In this document: piece after piece, positions 11,501 through 48,500 of the stretch
Layout of the letters: each line of letters starts with the position of its first letter
Position numbering within the stretch: position 1 is the stretch's first letter
From: a virus
Direction: 5' to 3' (one strand)
DNA: 64,000 nucleotides
Virus record (IMG/VR): IMGVR_UViG_3300046794_000123
Coordinates: 1-64,000 of that record
Position numbers and translations under genes: made by a program
Notes under the pieces: generated by a model
Databases searched by the model: none
The model's input: only the letters and a program-made list of their open reading frames with translations
What the model was told of the DNA's origin: nothing

Positions 11501-13405
11501 CAATGCCAGTGCTTGTTCCTGTGCCGAGTTCTTCGGGTTCTTGGCTTCGTTCGCCAGGTTCTGGAAGAAGTGAATACGGGAGGTCTGTCCGGCCGCTGCA
11601 CGCTGAATCACATCCGGCATGCCCTGCGTCTCGGCGGAATCGAAGTGCACCACACCCTTGGCCGCTTCGACGTAGGAGTGAGCCTCTTCCTTCTGGCTCG
11701 GGGTCAGGTCGGAATTGTTGATCGCATCGGTGGCAGCCTGCGCTGCTGCCGGTGCGTTCTGAACAGCCTCCTGCGCAGCCGTGGAGACGGCCTGGTCCGA
11801 GACAGGAGACTTCGCCTCGTTCTCGGCCATGATCCGGTCACCCCGCTTGCCAGCAAGCTCCACCGCCTTGTTGCCGACGCCTAGTGCTGCACGGGTACCG
11901 GAGCTCAAGATCGAGCCAGGACCAGACACCGCGCCGGCTGAGGCCATGCCATACAGACCGCCGAGACCGGCTTGCTCACCGACACCTTCGAGCAGATCTT
12001 TGTTCTCGTTGCTGGTTTGTTTGGTGGCGACGTTCTGTGCCGCCTGACCGGTACCCGACTGGATCGTCTCTTCGAGACCTTCCTTCAGGATGTTCTGGCC
12101 GAGCTGACGCAGCGTCGGGATCTTGAGCGGTGCCGATTCGAACTTGGCAACCAGACCACCGGTAGCCGTAGCCAGCGGTGCCTGAATGGCAGCCGCCCAC
12201 AGACCCGAGCGATTGGCGACCGTCTGGCGTGCTTCCTCGAAGGACATGCCTTCGCCACCGTCTTCCTTCTTGGCAGCGAGTCGGTTGAAAAGCGGCGAGG
12301 TCTTGGCCAGATCCTCGAAGCTCGTGTTCATCACGTCCGAGGCATTCTGTTGATACGCTCCACCCGCTTCCGTGGCACCAATACCCGCCATCGTCGCACC
12401 TTCGTGTTGAGCGAAGTCCAACACCTTGGAGCCAAGGGGAGAAGCAGCTGCCCGGCCCAGTAGCGCCGAAGCACCGGTAGCGCCTGCATCAGCGGCCATT
12501 GCACCTTCGACCAGTGCACGACGCACGAGCTTGCCACCGGCCACATCGGCTACACCGACAATGCCTCGACCGATCGGACCAGCGGTGAGAAGCGAACCGA
12601 CACCTTGTGCCAGACCATCGGAGGCGACTGTCGGATCCGAGACAGCGTTACCCACGGCGGTAACACCGTCTTTGGCGATGCGTCGCAGACCTGCGACAAA
12701 CGCCCCATCCGTTTCCTTGGTTCGCGCCTCTTCATCTGCGTTGTCCCGGAATCCGAGCTCGTTCCGTGCAGCATTGAGTTGGCGATGAGCATTCATCCCA
12801 TCCGACTGAAGGTTCTGCTGAACCACATCGTTGAGTGCCTTGATGCCTTGTGCAGCGGCAACCCCTGCGCGTTTGTTAACGATGCCCGCACCCAGCGCTG
12901 CCACACCACCAACCGAATTGGCAATACCCAAGCCGACACCGGTAGCGAAGTCGCCGGCCGCCTGCGGAAGCGAGCGAGTCGTATTGATGTCGGTCTGCGT
13001 GGCCCCCTGTGCCTGCAACTGACCATTGAGCATGTCCTGGGCACGGTCGAAACCGTACTTCTTCGCCAGATCATAGGGCGACATGTTGTTCAGATCGGCC
13101 AGCTCCTGGGTCGGCAGCGTCTGATTGCCCACACCTGAGTTACGGGCCAGCGTCGAGCTGTACAGCTGATCCAAGGAAGGCACACCGTTCTGTTGAACGA
13201 CATCTGCCTTCTTTGCATCAGCCGTTTGAGCAAGTGCTGCTTTCTTCGTGTCGGCTGTTGCGGCTACTACGTTCTGTTTGGTTGGGGCGGGTGAGTCTGG
13301 AAGGAAGGGGTTATCGACTACCCCAGTGACCGGCCCTGAACCAGGTACCGTCCCAGTACCGGCTGTACCCAGGTACTGGTCGAACATCTCTTGCGCAGAC
13401 GGCAT
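2555..13405 (-). CDS. Virion-encapsidated RNA polymerase (N4 gp50 vRNAP)
   Basis: 3616 aa; T7-like motifs KVGRL, EADGMTNGP (A), RDLTKNPLTVTMY (B), IFDG (C); HELIH motif; no Cys seen on reading, a vRNAP hallmark. Confidence 0.97.
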   Translation of the reverse strand: MPSAQEMFDQYLGTAGTGTVPGSGPVTGVVDNPFLPDSPAPTKQNVVAATADTKKAALAQTADAKKADVVQQNGVPSLDQLYSSTLARNSGVGNQTLPTQELADLNNMSPYDLAKKYGFDRAQDMLNGQLQAQGATQTDINTTRSLPQAAGDFATGVGLGIANSVGGVAALGAGIVNKRAGVAAAQGIKALNDVVQQNLQSDGMNAHRQLNAARNELGFRDNADEEARTKETDGAFVAGLRRIAKDGVTAVGNAVSDPTVASDGLAQGVGSLLTAGPIGRGIVGVADVAGGKLVRRALVEGAMAADAGATGASALLGRAAASPLGSKVLDFAQHEGATMAGIGATEAGGAYQQNASDVMNTSFEDLAKTSPLFNRLAAKKEDGGEGMSFEEARQTVANRSGLWAAAIQAPLATATGGLVAKFESAPLKIPTLRQLGQNILKEGLEETIQSGTGQAAQNVATKQTSNENKDLLEGVGEQAGLGGLYGMASAGAVSGPGSILSSGTRAALGVGNKAVELAGKRGDRIMAENEAKSPVSDQAVSTAAQEAVQNAPAAAQAATDAINNSDLTPSQKEEAHSYVEAAKGVVHFDSAETQGMPDVIQRAAAGQTSRIHFFQNLANEAKNPKNSAQEQALALATLNDSINNVFGENGLNFAGEDFKSLPDDHAAKQFSSQVGELLTAFQQSPAGKTAANTERAEKVAQRVAKDTLTEQHFDSPEGQQAVQANIAAAQISPQNSNRANNELILNMAAAGKITLDNRQSAALRTANAILDGQKAYIEQLKKTGLKSSADLVSEKVTVNQGSAEGEESALEHTNAIRAAYGRGDTEGAKTALLGFQKFVQSQQNKIRAVNAQIAAHGGNANPGNALHYDAARQDKSGFTKSQNPFGVSVRGKRAASSIGFVQQVAAESHALTGIHNALATAFPELGVKHLAEVSLDPSLADAHPSKVAKEFADGVRGKKEAPASQSSESTVQDEAPKQPVTSEKPAAKDAVKETAKPVESVNKDLPAAAPVEDTPSLEDERDDLINRKIDGPLTPQEEARLSEINRRLNPGQASKEVVQKYAAKRKYRIVGEADQQGGLASTYPTLIHFPTGNMFVNAFKFPSKPITKFSGEENPLEQVQQALHSGSAFTHAAGIDGTNLFTPKVAADYQAFLRYVPKIIAAMNAQIPVFLDKGNNQKDFDEGTKDINRYKNGKLMNLVEEGEDGVLRLNQQLAEGAALAGLQWLLEARQKASHYNNEDVARIFGVPLDTVDENGPLATFLQSGTLRIDAYSDLAQKIQEYWGLTKDADADVAYSQGIPQAMAAEVIKALDTIELKTGENKGQSLTNPETMVVDTSTGQPVPFVRKEGQKLPKGFREVEIFRIQPATVFKGVAAMPDAIERVVMTKPKQIYYMDGAVPVNSDEQMRNPGVKLTDEQQEMVGRESSVPHTLDMETVNLMEALNAGGNLLKIFGPGESDSEKLNKNDAISKKGQALSITSAFDAMRDLVAVTRAQSAATGKPMEEIEHRYGYGVSKVGRLQMLGAFNPQASKLMRHVILPTLSTLNMLRGEHIRAFDLGVAQGIGIKVHNMPYTAARNQMLDALNGKYAPAVDVLRAYLKGGKLGMETADIEKLSASLGSGASFAQLYALKEYARLLNAQEAGEDLSQFKTKLYLEADGMTNGPIMAMAMFARGHTDVQNLENMSRGGLYYGGLPFQNSTIQRTIDPTDLYKATANVVNTRFADKLSDKDMPADMKGQLTHVLRLMNVLLGNKVIEFDGENVTMQRDLTKNPLTVTMYASGAGGIANKLVSMLTDAMYQQMSVAMQNEWGADQIFGPDQAKKNADFNESLRALREFVPEWNKKERKYALTKTKNTLADQALKDYTLGSGDLQAMSSNLKTLFVSDLRSAIKQVVGNDTFVAMDMVKTATQVQSIVQQHMFEAKVKRAVQERIDSKDPTYRTGDFLSQKQLDAIKRSMAGYSPLIKAPGQTFFLSGQNKVGLAGASFASSLSGSHAVPATVNGPGNIGVAGTASLNIGMGDGKMIQTFSNDPDTDPRRLLIFDGIHLALDQIYAGSEQANRAVWNTWMGNPLKAVSQSFDSFMDNIPATEVTKGSDLHRDLVAALFGPFNATDEKIGDFPPEVVMEELQKLQGDLQLSEKQVDARHRAMNRVNVSVDHLASAASPYQITDKEMVVGSPEQVAQRLSEITQEEYAKIRAKEKKDPSNKTESIPTELAKWGEAVEGGARSLTMQSVHRVIENVLKKVPRDQAIVLQSIQKTLAAEGYSLIHGTREQLLDYNASLGANMIDASRLTDENVHGFTMTGRQEIWLVSPSSETLAHELIHAATIRKVQAFYNGEDLGPNSQQVTKAIQNLEVLMQQFLNLGDLDQEEGGLDAMPREMQVAYNHAQSAINAALSDMNLDPATRKAAALNEYMAWGLANTQLTNLQKKVESHWLVQMAKDVVNAIRQIVFGKDKPMAPENDMFSNLLFNTQVVMAAQIDLPQIMSDTTLYQSTQYGTNDHLTELGNSFDETITKWIVQADGDVKEMLRRHFNARYESQDRGARMADNFATVFPMTLQEKTTFHQIVAGLTSEAQFDPTVLARMQQLWSQVNQHLTADMMEDPNEPDANQRRHDAQAKVDAIRGDLFAEEDSKGRSTLLPTFVALAMTNDQFRQVLANLLVEKQGRSKAESRVDRALENLATDVLDSLGRRISGEGKSRDVLAAMDAMGDRFMDIAQERETAMDRYLRDSGGLVDSANDYMVQGMDALSRFLVRKTGEWDQAYDNKLTNAVASSARLFGAIVSEDQAGHVAEGLLAATNKIKAFKPFTDIIHDMIGRVASNAQVYDMIKTVRSMIQKTRQQFREEVPSVIEAQFSRKLEEHEWDLLHKGMGRADLASLSQGMTQDQVLELARSSKARKAKIAELEDQIKALDKPNFDIRQKKMKELARYMMTGETASHLLRNATAITRMVGMPGWEKQKSNPALTKPIDMLTSLYALEELSAKETADLAGLVTSQEKGMKFALSYLQGQRKDEMSRADSSERALLNHFKGYIPQVQQAGASLIVADDSEYANLTNRSYVRIGDYKGSNVEPGKTKKGYYFMPVNGRQAFQQGNLQNVRQTAGGVDVASGYSQMQSAGRITDANAVKRIESMVAIGAEKGNEHLMPVFNHAGEVVAYERALNPQIVNSKLQFNTQLHQMLGVWRGRQVEEELSAVYNNELIDKLADMYDTDLNESKANAERYINVFDQREQAKDPVLKDAVALITPAMKRQIEQKFGKQFWIRRDMLNDVLGYRSASVGDAWTGNSRWSEDTQKHFQRIAMSVFGNKAYRYAVNAERTFQNLVSDMKTMIVVKSVVVPVANLVSNAYQLAGRGVPIKDIITGMPKKTAEVKAYVANELRRIEADAELRAAEGRRDAVAVRKLRTEIQSIEDSHKRLSIWPLIQAGEFSAVSDGKATAEEIELTSGRLHGYIEQLVDKLPPGIKTAGRYALITKDTALFQGMQTAVEYGDFLAKAILYDDLTKRKKQSQEYALARVTEEYVNYDRLPGRFRGYMESMGLMWFYNFKIRSAKVALSMIRNNPVHALLAGLVPAPSFLGSIGTPLTDNLFAKLADGQISYSFGFGQLFHAPTLNPWVNLFSN

Positions 13406-44433: not shown

Positions 44434-44601
44434 ATGAGCACGAAGAAGTGCTGCCCTCATTGCGGCAGTGAACGCATCCTGCGTGATGCGTGGACCAAGT
44501 GGGACGGCACCGAATGGGTAGTCCATGACGTGCTGGACAACTGCGTCTGCAACGAATGCGGTGCGGACTTCAATGACGACGAGATCGAGGATCAAACGTG
44601 A
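44434..44601 (+). CDS. Zn-ribbon protein (55 aa)
   Basis: CPHC...CNEC; RBS; overlaps RNAP1 start. Confidence 0.6.
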   Translation: MSTKKCCPHCGSERILRDAWTKWDGTEWVVHDVLDNCVCNECGADFNDDEIEDQT

Positions 44602-45407
44602 GTGACTCGAAGATCGAGCATCAGAAAGAACTTGAGCGTCTCTATAACAAGAACCAGCTCATGCCACGCATGCGAGCTGAGTTCAAGGCTGAGCCGGAGA
44701 TCATCGAGCACCTGAAGGCCAATGGCATTCCGGAGGACTTCGGTATCGATCTCCTGGTTCAGATGGCACTGCATAAGCGAGCTGATCTGCAGACCATGAT
44801 CGGCACTCTGCGCCACCACTGTGTGTCGGCCCAGGAATGTGCGGATCTGCTCGTCAAGGCTGCCGAGGCCGATCTGTGCACCTACAACACTGTCCTGCGT
44901 CAGTTCATCGTGATCTTCGAGATCGATGCTCAGACACAGGAAGAGATCGATCGATTCCAGTATCCGCTGCCGATGGTAGTCGAGCCAAGGGAGATCAAGC
45001 ACAACGCCCAGAGCGGTTACCTGCTCAACAACAGCTCCATCATCCTGAAGGATAACCACCATGAGGATGATGTGTGTCTCGACCACATCAATCGGATGAA
45101 CAAGGTCCGATTCAAGTTCAACTTCAACACCGCGAAACTCATCAAGAATGAATGGAGAAACCTCGACAAACCCAAGGAAGGTGAAGAGCGAGGCGAGTAC
45201 GAGCGCCGAGTCCGTGCTTTCGAAAAGTACGACAAGACTGCTCATGCTGTCATCGATCTACTTGTTCGAGAAGGGAACGAGTTCAACTTCACGCATCGAT
45301 ACGATAAGCGTGGTCGCACGTACTGCCAGGGCCATCATGCGAACTACCAGGGCACGGCGTGGAACAAAGCCGTGATCGAGTTCGAACGAGGAGAAGTGAC
45401 GCAATGA
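44598..45407 (+). CDS. RNA polymerase II subunit 1 (N4 gp15-like)
   Basis: 269 aa; FQYPLPMVVEP, YDKRGRTY, QGTAWNKA. Confidence 0.93.
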   Translation: MSDSKIEHQKELERLYNKNQLMPRMRAEFKAEPEIIEHLKANGIPEDFGIDLLVQMALHKRADLQTMIGTLRHHCVSAQECADLLVKAAEADLCTYNTVLRQFIVIFEIDAQTQEEIDRFQYPLPMVVEPREIKHNAQSGYLLNNSSIILKDNHHEDDVCLDHINRMNKVRFKFNFNTAKLIKNEWRNLDKPKEGEERGEYERRVRAFEKYDKTAHAVIDLLVREGNEFNFTHRYDKRGRTYCQGHHANYQGTAWNKAVIEFERGEVTQ

Positions 45408-45625
45408 TCACGCACGAACAGGCGCTGGATGTCTGTGCCCAGAAATATGCTGAGTACAGGGATAAGTGCGACAAAGCGTTCCGTACAGGTGCTGGAGGAC
45501 GCTCAGTCGTCCATGCACAGAATGCCCACGTCATGGCAGAACAATTCCAAAAACTCGCTGGGCTGCGAAACACAGATGAAGCTGTGGCCCAGATCCGTGA
45601 ACGACTCAAGAGGAAGAAACGATGA
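45404..45625 (+). CDS. Hypothetical protein
   Basis: ATGA overlap. Confidence 0.55.
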   Translation: MITHEQALDVCAQKYAEYRDKCDKAFRTGAGGRSVVHAQNAHVMAEQFQKLAGLRNTDEAVAQIRERLKRKKR

Positions 45626-45894
45626 AAACCACCTGGCGTCATCCGGGCTACGATGCCCTCAATGAGAAGAGCAAGCCTGTCGTCGTGAAGACGTATTCGA
45701 GACCTGGAGTGAGTCCCGATCCGCAGGTCTCGGTAGGCTGCACCATGCGCAACTTCACCACGCTGGAGCTGCTCGACGATGGCACGCTGCAAGTGCGAGA
45801 TCGTGATCTCGACAAGGCAGTCAACCTAGGCCGAGCCAAGGAAGCAATGGAGGCCATGGCCTACTCCATGAACATGCTGAAGATCCACTTCTAA
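45622..45894 (+). CDS. Hypothetical protein
   Basis: ATGA overlap, RBS. Confidence 0.55.
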   Translation: MKTTWRHPGYDALNEKSKPVVVKTYSRPGVSPDPQVSVGCTMRNFTTLELLDDGTLQVRDRDLDKAVNLGRAKEAMEAMAYSMNMLKIHF

Positions 45895-46014
45895 CCAAGG
45901 AACGAGGGAGACAAGGAAAAGTCCTTCCTTGGTTCCCTCCCTCCTTCATTCGCGGGAGGCTTGCATCCCTCCAAGAATGGTTTACCGTATACGGTTGAAC
46001 CAACCTTCTTGGAG
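45893..46014 (+). promoter_or_regulatory. Putative centromere/operator and sigma70 promoter of the par operon
   Basis: Inverted array of 4-bp boxes (AACC AAGG AACG AGGG AGAC AAGG / CCTT CCTT GGTT CCCT CCCT CCTT); TTGCAT-16-TACCGT; IR CTCCAAGAA...TTCTTGGAG around palindrome ACCGTATACGGT. Confidence 0.6.
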
Positions 46015-46019
46015 TTCAG

Positions 46020-46664
46020 ATGAGAACAATCGTCTTCTCCTGCCTGAAAGGCGGGAGTGGCAAAACCACGCATTCAGCCCACTTCGCAGTGGCGCTGGAA
46101 GCCATGGGCAAAGGTCCAGTAGTCACTATGGACCTCGATCCGCAAGGATCTCTCTCAGCCTGGTGGAATGACCGCAAGGCTGAGACACCCCAGTTCGCCA
46201 TGGTCGAGAACGTAGCGCACCTGGCCAAGAAGCATGTCGAGCTCACCAATGCCGGCTACCAGTGGTGCGTGATCGATACGCCACCGCAGGACCACGAGAT
46301 CAACCGCACAGCCATTCGTCTGGCTGATCTGGTGGTTATTCCGGCCAAGCATTCTCCGCATGACATCCGGGCTGCCGAGAGCACGGTGGATCTATGCGAG
46401 CAAGAGAAGAAGAAGTTCTTCTTCCTGCTCAATGAGACCAACGGCAAGTCGGTCTCGCTGGCTGCTACCCGTAAGCTTGCCTCGATGGGGCCGGTGATTC
46501 CACACGCCATCCCCAAGCTCAATGGCTACTGGGAGTCGATGATCGACGGCCGTACCTTTCAGGAAGTAAACAAGGGGACCGGTGCAATCATCATTGATGA
46601 CGTAGCCAGCTTCCTTATCAGCCAGTTCGAGAAGCAGCCGAAGAAGGAGAAGGCTCATGTCTAA
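46020..46664 (+). CDS. parA: Type Ib ParA partition ATPase
   Basis: Deviant Walker A KGGSGKTT, DLDPQGS, VIDTPP; 214 aa with no N-terminal HTH. Confidence 0.95.
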   Translation: MRTIVFSCLKGGSGKTTHSAHFAVALEAMGKGPVVTMDLDPQGSLSAWWNDRKAETPQFAMVENVAHLAKKHVELTNAGYQWCVIDTPPQDHEINRTAIRLADLVVIPAKHSPHDIRAAESTVDLCEQEKKKFFFLLNETNGKSVSLAATRKLASMGPVIPHAIPKLNGYWESMIDGRTFQEVNKGTGAIIIDDVASFLISQFEKQPKKEKAHV

Positions 46665-47010
46665 GCCATCACTCGACTCACTCGTCACCCGTAAGGGCAG
46701 TGCTGCGCCTGCCGCCTTGGAACCGCCTGCAATCGAGCAAGCAAGCAAGGAGCCAAGGAAGGAAGTAACCAAGGAGGCATCCAAGGAACCCTCCAACCAA
46801 GGAGCCAGTGAAGGAAGGAGACGTGCTTGGCACCAACCCGGCCAGGAGGAGTGGAAGAAGACGAACTATGAGATGCCGCTGCGTGTGCAGACCAAGCTCA
46901 AGGAGATGAAGAATTGGGGTTACATCCCCAATGTCTACAAGTTCGTGGCTGAGGTGGTCGAGAAAGAGATCGACAAGGTCATTGCCAAGGCCGAGAAGGA
47001 GGGCTACTGA
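46657..47010 (+). CDS. ParG-like ribbon-helix-helix centromere-binding protein
   Basis: Overlaps parA; disordered N-term, then WKKTNYEMP (strand)-LRVQTKLKEMK (helix)-VYKFVAEVVEKEI (helix). Confidence 0.7.
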   Translation: MSKPSLDSLVTRKGSAAPAALEPPAIEQASKEPRKEVTKEASKEPSNQGASEGRRRAWHQPGQEEWKKTNYEMPLRVQTKLKEMKNWGYIPNVYKFVAEVVEKEIDKVIAKAEKEGY

Positions 47011-47011
47011 C

Positions 47012-47650
47012 GTGAGCGTACCCGAGCTATTCGATGACGAGCCAGAGAAGATACAGCAGCTGGAGCTATTCAAGGCTGAGACTCGCTGGTTCCATGTCTT
47101 CAAATCCATGATCGCCAGCGGTGATGTGGCCAAAATGGGGCCGTATGCCTTCACCGTCTATTCGGTGATCAAGGCCCATACCAGCTTCAGCAAGGGCCAC
47201 AGCTTCCCGGAGATCTCCACCATCGTGGAGGAGTCGGGCATCAGCAAGGCACAGGTGCATCGAGCTCTCGATGTACTGGAGGAACTGGGTTACGTGCGCA
47301 GGGGCAAGAAGCCCAGCGGACGAGGGAACCTCTACATCTTCCGTGAGAAGGTGGACATCGAGGACAAGCAGGGCAACCATGTGGCTGATGCCTCATGGGA
47401 TTACCTGCCGCTCGGTGTCAGCTCTGCCATCGCTGAGCTGAAGCATGTCAAAATGACTGGTGACTTTAGCGGAGCCAAGATCGTCCAGATCGAGAACCTG
47501 ACTGTCAACGTGAACACAGCGAACGACAGTTCGATTCAGATCAACATTCAGACGCTTATGGACAACATGGAAATGCTGCCCAAGGAGCTGAAAGAGATAT
47601 TGGTTAGACGATTAGCAGAGATGCAGTTGAAGTCTCCCACTGAGACTTGA
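47012..47650 (+). CDS. Winged-HTH putative plasmid replication initiator (Rep)
   Basis: HTH_36-like SFPEISTIVEESGISKAQVHRALDVLEELGYV; QLELF clamp motif; directly followed by iterons and DnaA box. Confidence 0.7.
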   Translation: MSVPELFDDEPEKIQQLELFKAETRWFHVFKSMIASGDVAKMGPYAFTVYSVIKAHTSFSKGHSFPEISTIVEESGISKAQVHRALDVLEELGYVRRGKKPSGRGNLYIFREKVDIEDKQGNHVADASWDYLPLGVSSAIAELKHVKMTGDFSGAKIVQIENLTVNVNTANDSSIQINIQTLMDNMEMLPKELKEILVRRLAEMQLKSPTET

Positions 47651-47835
47651 AACGTAGGTCTCACACTGAGACGTATCCAAGAGAGACTGAACAACTCCCT
47701 TCAAGTCTCAGGCTGAGACTCGAAACCGGGGTTCAGGTCTCACACAGAGTCACTAATAAGATAAGACTTGTTTACTAAGTAAACCCAGAGCATCGAAGAC
47801 TTATCCACACTTTCAGTGGCTAACCCTGTGAACAA
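47632..47835. repeat. Putative plasmid replication origin (iterons, AT-rich IR, DnaA boxes)
   Basis: GTCTC-N5-GAGAC at 47632, 47658, 47705 with degenerate copies at 47673 and 47737; GTTTACT-A-AGTAAAC 47770-84; TTATCCACA 47801-09; inverted near-box at 47827-35. Confidence 0.78.
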
Positions 47836-47837
47836 CT

Positions 47838-48050
47838 ATGAGCGACGCACAAGAACCGAAGAACCTCGTCCTGGTCAAGCTGGATCAGGTACTGACCAGG
47901 CTCGACAACCTGCATGACGACATGCGGCAGATCAAGGCACGCATGACAGCACTGGAAAAGCAGATGCAGACAACCAGTGAATCCGTGGTCGCCCAGTGGG
48001 ACACCTTTGATAAGCACGAAGACCGGATCCGCACGCTGGAAAACCAATGA
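47838..48050 (+). CDS. Small coiled-coil protein
   Basis: Heptads LDQVLTRLDNLHDDMRQIKARMTALE. Confidence 0.6.
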   Translation: MSDAQEPKNLVLVKLDQVLTRLDNLHDDMRQIKARMTALEKQMQTTSESVVAQWDTFDKHEDRIRTLENQ

Positions 48051-48056
48051 CCGACC

Positions 48057-48284
48057 ATGGCCATCGAAAACATCCCACGATTCGAGTCAGAAGAGCAGGA
48101 GCTGCGCTGGATCCTCAACGAGCTGCACAAGGAGTACCAGCGCAAGATTCAGCCCATTGTCAAACGGCTGAGCAAGATTGACGCAGCCAGGCCGCTGCCA
48201 CCGCTCATCGTGAGCGACTACGACAAATACAACCAGCAGGCGCTACAGCAGCTGCTGGACAAGTTCAGACAAGGCCGAACATGA
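48057..48284 (+). CDS. Hypothetical protein
   Basis: 75 aa ORF in operon. Confidence 0.55.
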   Translation: MAIENIPRFESEEQELRWILNELHKEYQRKIQPIVKRLSKIDAARPLPPLIVSDYDKYNQQALQQLLDKFRQGRT

Positions 48285-48478
48285 ACCAGGAAAAAGAAAT
48301 GACGCACAAACCCATGAATGCCTGGAAGGTGTATCAGCCTTCCGGCACCACCGACCCGGATGCCCATCTCGACACGGTGTTCTTCATCCCGAGCATGGAA
48401 GCGGACGACATCAAGAAAGCCCTGATTGAGCATGACGGCTTTCCATCCAACATCTACATTGAGTTGGATAAGCGATAA
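48281..48478 (+). CDS. Hypothetical protein
   Basis: LDTVFF...IKKALIEHDGF motif. Confidence 0.6.
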   Translation: MNQEKEMTHKPMNAWKVYQPSGTTDPDAHLDTVFFIPSMEADDIKKALIEHDGFPSNIYIELDKR

Positions 48479-48500
48479 GCGCAGTACCGCATCAAACCTC

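Follow-up and report, generated by a model that had tools for sequence, protein, structure and literature searches.

What are partition and replication genes of plasmid type doing between the RNA polymerase genes of an N4-like phage? Textbooks present N4-like phages as obligately lytic, and several of them are candidates for phage therapy, including therapy against Acinetobacter and Pseudomonas. The DNA considered here is a stretch of 64,000 nucleotides (the window), namely bases 1-64000 of the 78,537-bp IMG/VR virus record IMGVR_UViG_3300046794_000123, which has a CheckV completeness of 100% and a genomic G+C content of 57%. Between the two genes of its N4-type RNA polymerase II (RNAPII) lies a cassette encoding a ParA ATPase, a small protein of 117 amino acids (aa) and a winged-helix protein, with repeats on its 5' side and origin-like DNA on its 3' side. 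We consider it rather probable that this stretch is a horizontally acquired maintenance cassette of plasmid type, which has been kept between the RNAPII genes in an N4-like clade and enables the phage genome to persist outside the host chromosome. Two further complete metagenomic N4-like genomes with the cassette (L063 and L064, of 74,740 and 77,219 bp) were found by means of the 117-aa protein. The features of the cassette in the window are the following.

45893..45975, no strand: imperfect inverted repeats of CCAAGGA and GAGGGAG words, candidate centromere or operator, or terminator of the upstream gene
45960..46019, plus strand: block kept in all three N4-like carriers (window, L063 and L064 compared side by side)
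46020..46664, plus strand: type Ib (ParF-like) ParA ATPase, 214 aa (Pfam, phrog_164 and PDB matches, Walker A motif)
46657..47010, plus strand: ParG-like partner, 117 aa (alignment, AF2 model, position)
46747..46819, no strand: eight AAGGA boxes, four of them CCAAGGA, inside the gene of the 117-aa protein; candidate intragenic centromere
47012 (GTG)..47650, plus strand: winged-helix (HTH_36) protein, 212 aa, putative replication initiator (HTH_36, E 2.4e-9; phrog_28562, E 3.6e-27)
47632..47751, no strand: five 15-bp palindromic iterons GTCTC-N5-GAGAC, start-to-start spacing 26, 15, 32 and 32
47752..47800, no strand: AT-rich stretch, candidate unwinding element (65% A+T versus 43% in the genome)
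47801..47809, plus strand: perfect DnaA box TTATCCACA, the sole perfect one in the window

Partition genes and candidate centromeres

The ParA protein matches P-loop families exclusively in Pfam (AAA_31, MipZ, VirC1 and CbiA), retrieves phrog_164 with an E-value of 4e-33 and displays the deviant Walker A motif KGGSGKT at residues 10-16. Its best solved relatives, aligned over their full length with E-values of about 2e-12, are a 214-aa ParA (5u1g) and ParF of TP228 (4dzz, E 2.5e-12). Type Ib ParAs are distinguished by the signature KGGxxK[ST], a length of about 200-220 aa and the lack of an N-terminal helix-turn-helix (HTH) domain, and the 214-aa protein shows all three features. A first-pass annotation made from the letters of the DNA had placed a type Ib ParA between the RNAPII subunit genes, and these matches bear it out. 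The same annotation had described the genes as intact and translationally coupled; indeed, all open reading frames (ORFs) are complete, the stop codon of parA and the ATG of the 117-aa ORF overlap by 8 nt (ATGTCTAA), and the winged-helix gene begins with a GTG one base past the stop codon of the 117-aa ORF (TGA-c-GTG). The 8-nt overlap recurs in L064, whereas in L063 the two genes are separated by a gap of about 160 bp (4839-5001).

The 117-aa protein consists of a conserved N-terminal peptide, a disordered linker rich in K and E, and a conserved C-terminal strand-helix-helix unit, and the alignment of its family shows L6, K13, G14 and A16 to be nearly invariant. Its AF2 model has an extended segment at residues 66-74 followed by helices at residues 75-86 and 93-115, with pLDDT values below 50 at residues 12-40. 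The top rows of a Foldseek search with this model are ribbon-helix-helix (RHH) proteins, namely ParD antitoxins, NikR and the RHH ParB of pCXC100, all of them non-significant with E-values >2. No Pfam family matched the protein, a profile search with its family returned no PDB match, and a scan of metagenome contigs with the family alignment recovered no relative; the ORF at the same position in locus L009 matches TacA-type RHH proteins with an E-value of 1.2e-5. These faint likenesses suggest that the C-terminal end is probably an RHH domain. The RHH partner claimed by the first-pass annotation is thus in place as a coupled small gene, with weak support for the fold itself. A predicted complex of the ParA dimer, ATP and the 117-aa protein scored 0.29, against a mark of 0.32.

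Centromere-like repeats had been claimed between the gene of the RNAPII small subunit and parA, and inverted repeats are present there at 45893-45946. Their 22-nt arms lie at 45897-45918 and 45925-45946, the predicted RNA fold of the repeats 5' of parA has an energy of -30.7 kcal/mol (z -2.4), and CCAAGGA and GAGGGAG words stand in an inverted arrangement likewise in L063 and L064. The conserved 60-bp block before parA consists of CTTGCATCCCTCC, followed by an imperfect palindrome of 25 bp (45978-46002), the central 12 bp of which, ACCGTATACGGT (45984-45995), are perfectly symmetrical, and then by GGAG and the ATG; it is likely to be the operator and promoter region of the par operon. The sigma70-like promoter of the first-pass annotation was not recovered, in that a consensus scan of 45300-48600 found none and no convincing -35/-10 pair could be discerned by eye in the conserved block.

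A further array of repeats is found in the part of the 117-aa gene that codes for the linker. All eight AAGGA boxes share one 4-bp register, yet they occupy all three codon phases, and we therefore read the array as a feature of the DNA rather than of the encoded protein. A single register is also seen in homologues, including those from non-N4 phages (6/6 boxes in L063, 5/5 in L064, 3/3 in L065, 5/5 in L066 and 4/4 in L072), and the distant homologues L078 and L083 have CCAAGAA words instead. By analogy, this points to an array like the tetramer-box centromere bound by ParG, possibly in dual-coding DNA, and the candidate centromere would comprise this array, the inverted CCAAGGA words and the palindrome 5' of parA. 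In the homologues with AAGGA boxes the array lies at about 5065-5180, and in L066 it includes three tandem 8-bp CCAAGGAa units.

The CCAAGGA word is frequent throughout the genome (48 copies versus about 9 expected). The longer word GARCCAAGG has 45 copies, 28 on the plus strand (e.g. 40555, 42694, 51235, 54818 and 58053) and 17 on the minus strand (e.g. 20028 and 20714). Many of these copies are situated 7-10 nt 5' of a start codon (GARCCAAGGAaaagaaCATG); they look like part of an extended signal for ribosome binding or the initiation of translation, and not like a dispersed centromere.

The winged-helix protein and its origin-like DNA

The weaker phrog matches of the winged-helix protein are all to replication-initiator, O-like and DnaD-like proteins. 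Its fold is a single generic MarR-like winged helix with a long wing, for which the best Foldseek rows are MarR- and Fur-type proteins, none of them significant, and a protein-atlas search recovered HTH_36 clusters only, with DnaD_N or RP-C domains on a minority of the members. No match to the classical or curated Rep families (Rep_3/RepA/pi/RepE, TrfA) was obtained in Pfam, PDB or Foldseek. About 21 of 25 family members possess an N-terminal Q-x-[ED]-L-F motif, which is Q-x-E-L-F in the protein of the window (residues 16-21; window 47012-47100) and resembles the sliding-clamp (beta-clamp) binding pentapeptide known from TrfA and Hda.

Five palindromes, the AT-rich stretch and the perfect DnaA box follow this gene in that order, the first iteron overlapping its 3' end. 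Exact GTCTC-N5-GAGAC sequences occur three times in the 64 kb, all within 47632-47751, where two further sites have one mismatch. This origin-like pattern is real and not a product of chance, and the iteron/DnaA-box origin that had been noticed 3' of the gene is thereby substantiated. Classical iteron initiators are typically encoded beside repeated sites, an AT-rich region and a DnaA box, a combination that is found here with palindromic sites in place of direct repeats. The earlier description of the protein as Rep-like is apt for a winged helix adjoining origin-type DNA, and does not extend to membership in the classical Rep families.

For 48 dereplicated loci encoding homologues of the winged-helix protein, we compared the 360 bp surrounding and following the stop codon of the gene with 1,365 control windows taken from these loci. 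After the gene, a perfect DnaA box is present in 22 of the 48 loci (46%) versus 0.4% of the controls (p about 1e-40), a DnaA box with at most one mismatch in 77% versus 3.8% (p about 1e-42), and at least two perfect palindromes sharing a half-site in 35% versus 1.2% (p about 1e-20). The palindromes of the family are spaced about 32 bp apart, and their half-sites (GTCTC, GTGTC, GTGCC, CGGTC, TGCTC, AGCTC and CCCTTA) vary together with the winged-helix protein; locus L005 has the same iteron spacing with related half-sites, and L004 and others have different half-sites. The enrichment of DnaA boxes after the gene marks the protein, by its context, as a putative initiator with its own origin, which would act like an iteron initiator or lambda O without belonging to either family.

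A different role can be envisaged for this protein as a centromere-binding protein or regulator, with the palindromes as its centromere in the manner of the AspA-ParB-ParA system of pNOB8 and with no part in replication. Two partition proteins, TubR (E 0.015) and AspA (E about 0.1), do figure among the weak PDB profile matches of the family, its MarR-like fold is generic, and palindromes 3' of an operon resemble some centromeres. However, the gene and its palindromes occur without any ParA in many chromosomal islands, and the DnaA boxes and AT-rich stretch are features of origins, about 100-fold enriched beside the gene. Furthermore, the family keeps an N-terminal Q-x-[ED]-L-F motif, every one of the weaker PHROG matches is to a replication initiator or a DnaD/O-like protein, and the AAGGA arrays offer a separate candidate centromere. 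A role confined to partition accordingly appears quite improbable to us, and we hold with considerable confidence that the cassette combines type Ib partition genes with a DnaA-assisted iteron replicon.

The winged-helix family is well conserved and widespread. Its chromosomal members lack a ParA and have a tyrosine integrase, in some cases along with AlpA, as their neighbor at the margin of islands with defence or transfer genes, whereas a ParA directly 5' of the gene is seen in viral contigs, small contigs and the 104-kb Polaromonas plasmid pA29BJ2. Integrase-flanked islands with an HTH_36 initiator, palindromic iterons, an AT-rich stretch and DnaA boxes (L033 6065-8570; L016 5602-8594; L012-L062 generally) are present in Burkholderia, Bordetella, Pandoraea, Pseudomonas, Stutzerimonas and Methylotenera, and carry an MmeI-type restriction-modification system or NikA/TrbL genes. 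This organization suggests that the islands replicate after excision. An HTH_36 initiator combined with palindromic iterons and DnaA boxes seems to form a replicon module that is widespread among plasmids, phages and islands of Beta- and Gammaproteobacteria; we found no earlier description of it in the searchable literature.

N4-like carriers and the mosaic cassette

The genome is marked as N4-like (Schitoviridae) by a full-length match to the virion RNA polymerase (vRNAP), the gene of which lies far from the cassette, and the RNAPII genes form the two flanks of the insertion.

2555..13405, minus strand: vRNAP, 3616 aa (phrog_2206, E 0, profile positions 6-3406 of 3406)
44598..45407, plus strand: N4 RNAPII small subunit, left flank of the insertion (phrog_2166, E 1.5e-102)
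48552..49745, plus strand: N4 RNAPII large subunit (RNAPII-L), right flank (phrog_2051, E 3e-160)

Both hallmarks of the Schitoviridae are present, namely the gene of the giant virion-packaged RNA polymerase and the two genes of the heterodimeric RNAPII, but the latter are parted by the cassette and by small ORFs, three of which lie between the cassette and the large-subunit gene at 47838-48478. The RNAPII gene pair spans 5.1 kb here versus about 2.1-2.5 kb in isolated N4-like phages. Nucleotide-level matches to the isolated N4-like phages (of Pseudomonas, Erwinia, Achromobacter, Stenotrophomonas and others) are restricted to both RNAPII genes, and more than 170 phage records match the query at these genes alone, with a coverage of at most 34%; isolated N4-like phages thus have nothing like the cassette between their RNAPII genes. 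A strong terminator-like hairpin at 48501-48532 (9-bp stem with 5 G-C pairs, T-run) just 5' of the start of the large-subunit gene would part this gene from the cassette and the three small ORFs.

L063 and L064 encode giant ORFs of 3,402 and 3,635 aa with a vRNAP core 39% identical to that of the window, and have the cassette between the same RNAPII genes, with all ORFs intact and all cis elements present and syntenic. Relative to the window, their RNAPII subunits are 67-76% identical, their ParAs 66-74%, their 117-aa proteins 76-79% and their winged-helix proteins 59%. The order of iterons, AT-rich stretch and perfect DnaA box is kept in all three carriers, while the iterons themselves differ: GTCTC-N5-GAGAC in the window, GGTGTCA-N3-TGACACC in L063 and GGTGAC-N5-GTCAC in L064. 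Differing iterons in a kept order are the pattern expected of co-evolving initiators and origins.

The record being a metagenome contig, it might be asked whether an N4-like phage has been joined in the assembly to DNA of a plasmid or another phage. Its first 1,037 bp (1-1037) overlap its last 1,039 bp (77499-78537) with an identity of just 91.6%, which points to an assembly that closes on itself with two strains mixed. This overlap fits a circle or terminal redundancy alike; the topology called in IMG/VR is linear for this genome and direct terminal repeats for its two N4-like relatives. Against a chimera, contigs from other rhizosphere runs bridge the RNAPII small-subunit gene to ParA, the RHH gene and the winged-helix gene (X3, 3032 bp with 0 differences; X5, 4561 bp; X6, 2670 bp), no joint skips the cassette, and two independent and diverged N4-like assemblies, L063 and L064, have the same arrangement. 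The linkage of the cassette to the N4-like genome is not an assembly artefact; we reject the chimera, to which we give hardly any credence.

The cassette is a mosaic. Relatives are found in non-N4 phages, in one Polaromonas plasmid and in integrase-flanked genomic islands. The ParA of the window is 81-83% identical to ParAs of CheckV-complete viral genomes of 36-54 kb without a vRNAP, one of which has a lambda-J-type tail tip; to the ParAs of the other N4-like carriers its identity is lower (66-74%). The winged-helix proteins of L063 and L064 are likewise closest to those of non-N4 phages (73% and 78%), and only the RHH gene has its highest similarity among the N4-like carriers. Across the set L063-L083 ParAs are 81-83% identical between phage types, and the adjacent RHH and winged-helix proteins 33-62%. 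The closest relatives of the winged-helix protein in IMG/VR are not N4-like either, no vRNAP having been found in G001-G005 or G008-G010. Some of the non-N4 phages lack an integrase, and one of these has a 208-aa ORF matching HTH_3; these cassette-bearing phages look like temperate phage-plasmids. The mosaic similarities imply frequent recombination within a pool of par/rep modules in one habitat, and the repeated exchange of parts suggests that the non-N4 phages share cells with the N4-like carriers.

The same mosaicism would suit a cassette that serves as a weapon, excluding co-resident plasmids and phage-plasmids with related iterons or ParA through incompatibility, or a selfish module of no benefit to the phage; parts do appear to be exchanged with non-N4 phages, as the affinities of the ParA and winged-helix proteins just described indicate. 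However, three diverged N4-like genomes have each kept the three genes and every cis element complete and in the same order, and the full set would not be needed for exclusion, for which the iterons or one protein suffice. Moreover, iteron specificities differ between the carriers, as would be the case for replicons that avoid rather than cause incompatibility. We regard exclusion or hitch-hiking as improbable, marginally more so than a role in partition alone, and continue to favor a maintenance cassette.

Proposed persistence of the phage genome and likeness to known systems

How such a cassette would act can be outlined from its parts. Dimers of the winged-helix protein would bind the palindromic iterons just 3' of their own gene and, together with host DnaA at the adjacent box, open the AT-rich stretch for host-driven theta replication of the circularised phage genome; the N-terminal Q-x-E-L-F motif may contact the sliding clamp. 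The ParF-like ATPase and the RHH partner would segregate the copies, with the RHH protein binding the AAGGA-box arrays and the conserved palindrome 5' of parA and also autoregulating the operon. The phage genome could thereby be kept outside the chromosome as cells divide, whether as a plasmid prophage or in a stabilised form of the pseudolysogeny reported for N4-like phages, with no need for an integrase. Silence of the lytic genes may, hypothetically, follow from the N4 cascade, in which early promoters need a polymerase delivered by the virion. On balance we lean towards such episomal persistence of this N4-like phage.

Unintegrated persistence exists in the N4-like family, as the N4-like phage Ab09 of Pseudomonas aeruginosa shows: it was kept long-term without integration in pseudolysogens through many colony passages, in an unstable manner, with 20-80% of colonies still carrying it (PMC6467409). 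A closer precedent comes from Acinetobacter. The only phage record with a close homologue of the winged-helix protein, and the best ParA match among phage records, is vB_IME_Ab2712 (OK149216, Schitoviridae). It has a trio of ParA (35% identity), a small ORF and an HTH_36 winged-helix protein (38% identity, E 6e-31), with palindromes of a related type (GTATC/GTCTC-N-GATAC) on its 3' side. This phage is 99.5% identical, over a 4-kb query spanning the cassette, to pRBH2-3 (NZ_CP110465), a circular plasmid record of 75,126 bp from a clinical A. baumannii isolate. The co-occurrence on a plasmid of N4 polymerase genes with ParA and a Rep-like protein, which the first-pass annotation had raised, is met with in pRBH2-3: RNAPII-L is present in both it and vB_IME_Ab2712 (E about 1e-160), and it also encodes a full-length vRNAP and an annotated N4-gp56 capsid protein. 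It is the only plasmid with an RNAPII-L homologue among the 72,556 of PLSDB. Its winged-helix, ParA and capsid proteins are found on roughly 150 contigs labelled A. baumannii, the longest of which measure 72-77 kb, with none above 77 kb and none chromosome-sized. An N4-like genome with a cassette of this type thus occurs as a separate replicon-sized molecule in many isolates.

The Acinetobacter cassette is situated beside lysis and tail genes and not between the RNAPII genes, and for this reason looks like an independent acquisition in another host lineage. Its middle ORF is unrelated to the 117-aa protein, no DnaA box lies within 450 bp of its winged-helix gene, and a serine recombinase gene is present in the Acinetobacter element and absent from the window. 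A 749-aa protein of the structural block of pRBH2-3 (58104-60353; L090 10105-12354), annotated as 'chromosome partitioning protein ParB', probably represents a virion or portal-region protein with a nuclease domain of ParB type. No paper describing pRBH2-3, RBH2 or Ab2712 turned up in a literature search of incomplete coverage; the same search retrieved none linking N4-like phages or Schitoviridae with phage-plasmids, partition or lysogeny.

These distributions bear on the possibility that the origin serves ordinary infection, for instance in host-primed theta replication before the phage polymerase takes over, with ParA and the RHH protein positioning genomes and with no plasmid state at all. 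The cassette lies among early and middle genes of the same orientation, and transcription from phage promoters could run through it; no sigma70 promoter of its own, no repressor and no integrase were found, and the phage is seen in metagenomes only. Yet the many phage records that match at the RNAPII genes alone are without the cassette, and the one phage record with a close winged-helix homologue, vB_IME_Ab2712, is also the sole N4-like record among plasmids, its proteins lying on element-sized contigs of about 150 isolate assemblies. In addition, a ParA beside the winged-helix gene occurs in non-integrated contexts only, and a 104-kb catabolic plasmid seems to have the same trio as its replicon. 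We accordingly judge a purely lytic use of the origin to be unlikely.

Several observations nevertheless weigh against persistence as an episome. No consensus sigma70 promoter lies 5' of parA from which the cassette might be expressed in a silent episome; the winged-helix protein has a single generic fold and no curated Rep match, its role as initiator being drawn from context alone; and its iterons are palindromes, unlike the direct repeats of classical iteron plasmids. Every infection would bring in vRNAP and so set off the lytic cascade, and no lysogeny regulator is apparent: none of the three metagenomic carriers has a match to an integrase, HTH_3, an S24 peptidase or a resolvase, which agrees with the earlier remark that neither an integrase nor a CI-like repressor is visible in the window, and a scan of 20 early and middle ORFs yielded no HTH match. 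The phage is known from rhizosphere metagenomes only, all 24 runs that hold it dating from 2023 with no isolate or RNA run among them, and its two close N4-like relatives are likewise known only from metagenomes. A sample of 401 Burkholderiales and 401 Pseudomonadales genomes contained no N4-like RNAPII (phrog_2051), only full-length T7-type RNA polymerases of 818-890 aa. Finally, the Acinetobacter molecule may represent either a quiescent prophage or a chronic infection, and with 35-38% identity and another site of insertion its cassette is an analogy and not the same element.

A stronger version of the proposal would be that the Schitoviridae include truly temperate phage-plasmids, silenced without a repressor by the architecture of the N4 cascade. 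In such an episome the absence of virion polymerase would leave the early promoters silent, and hence neither RNAPII nor the single-stranded DNA-binding protein (SSB) would be made and the middle and late genes, including that of vRNAP itself, would stay off; only the par/rep cassette, read by the host, would be active. Entry into and exit from this state would hinge on whether the injected vRNAP works, for example as a matter of supercoiling or starvation, or on stochastic expression of vRNAP. We think this version doubtful. The N4-like phage-plasmid of the first-pass annotation is partly supported, by the plasmid-type par and rep/ori unit, its conserved site and the Acinetobacter precedent; this phage itself is seen in metagenomes only, and the vRNAP-dependent switch of that annotation is speculation.

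If correct, extrachromosomal persistence of this phage would bring the phage-plasmid lifestyle into a family whose strategy of transcription is wholly different, as would the Acinetobacter element, and the cassette of this lineage together with the Acinetobacter element would give a molecular basis for N4-like pseudolysogeny. It would bear on the safety screening of 'lytic' therapeutic phages, and it raises the question of how a phage whose early genes are read by an injected polymerase is silenced. We found no earlier description of N4-like phage-plasmids in the searchable literature.

Among known partition systems, the closest likeness is to ParF-ParG-parH of TP228, with its small ParA devoid of an HTH domain, to which the ParA of the window aligns over full length. 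The TP228 system has a coupled small partner with a flexible N-terminal tail and a C-terminal RHH domain, and binds at an array whose 4-bp boxes keep to a 4-bp register; in ParG/omega-type RHH proteins generally, a conserved basic residue of the flexible N-terminal tail activates ParA. The coupled small gene and the AAGGA boxes in one 4-bp register are counterparts of these features. Unlike in TP228, the partner matches no ParG family by sequence, and the main box array is inside the partner's own coding sequence.

With respect to replication, P1 RepA/oriR, pSC101, RK2 TrfA/oriV and lambda O/ori-lambda all have an initiator gene beside repeated sites, an AT-rich stretch and a DnaA box. The dyad-symmetric sites that begin inside the initiator gene recall lambda O/ori-lambda, and the clamp-type Q-x-x-L-F motif recalls TrfA; in contrast to the double winged helix of Rep_3/RepA, to TrfA and to lambda O, the protein of the window has a single HTH_36 winged helix with no significant match, and the likeness is one of function and not of family membership. 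The whole trio has its nearest plasmid counterpart in pA29BJ2 (NZ_MN657148), a 104-kb catabolic and defence-carrying plasmid without phage genes. At 3514-5130 it encodes a ParA-type ATPase, a small ORF (26% identical to the 117-aa protein) and a winged-helix protein (35% identity over 91%) in the same order, followed by three palindromes spaced 32-33 bp and by DnaA boxes, with CCCTTA rather than GTCTC as the half-site. This trio is the sole replication candidate in the PLSDB gene table of the plasmid, a table that is incomplete.

The described phage-plasmids P1, N15, SSU5 and the AB group are temperate and have repressors (Pfeifer et al. 2021, PMC7969092). The genome studied here resembles them in combining a complete tailed-phage genome with genes for what appear to be plasmid replication and partition, and in having no integrase. 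It differs from them in that no repressor or switch was found in the N4-like carriers (scans for HTH_3, S24 peptidase, integrase and resolvase), and in that an extrachromosomal replicon in a bacterial isolate is seen for the Acinetobacter analogue only; the AB group phage-plasmids of Acinetobacter, at about 110 kb, are unrelated. Like the unintegrated genome of Ab09 it is N4-like, no maintenance cassette being reported for Ab09. By this comparison, the cassette would supply the very functions of replication and segregation that pseudolysogeny of the Ab09 type lacks.

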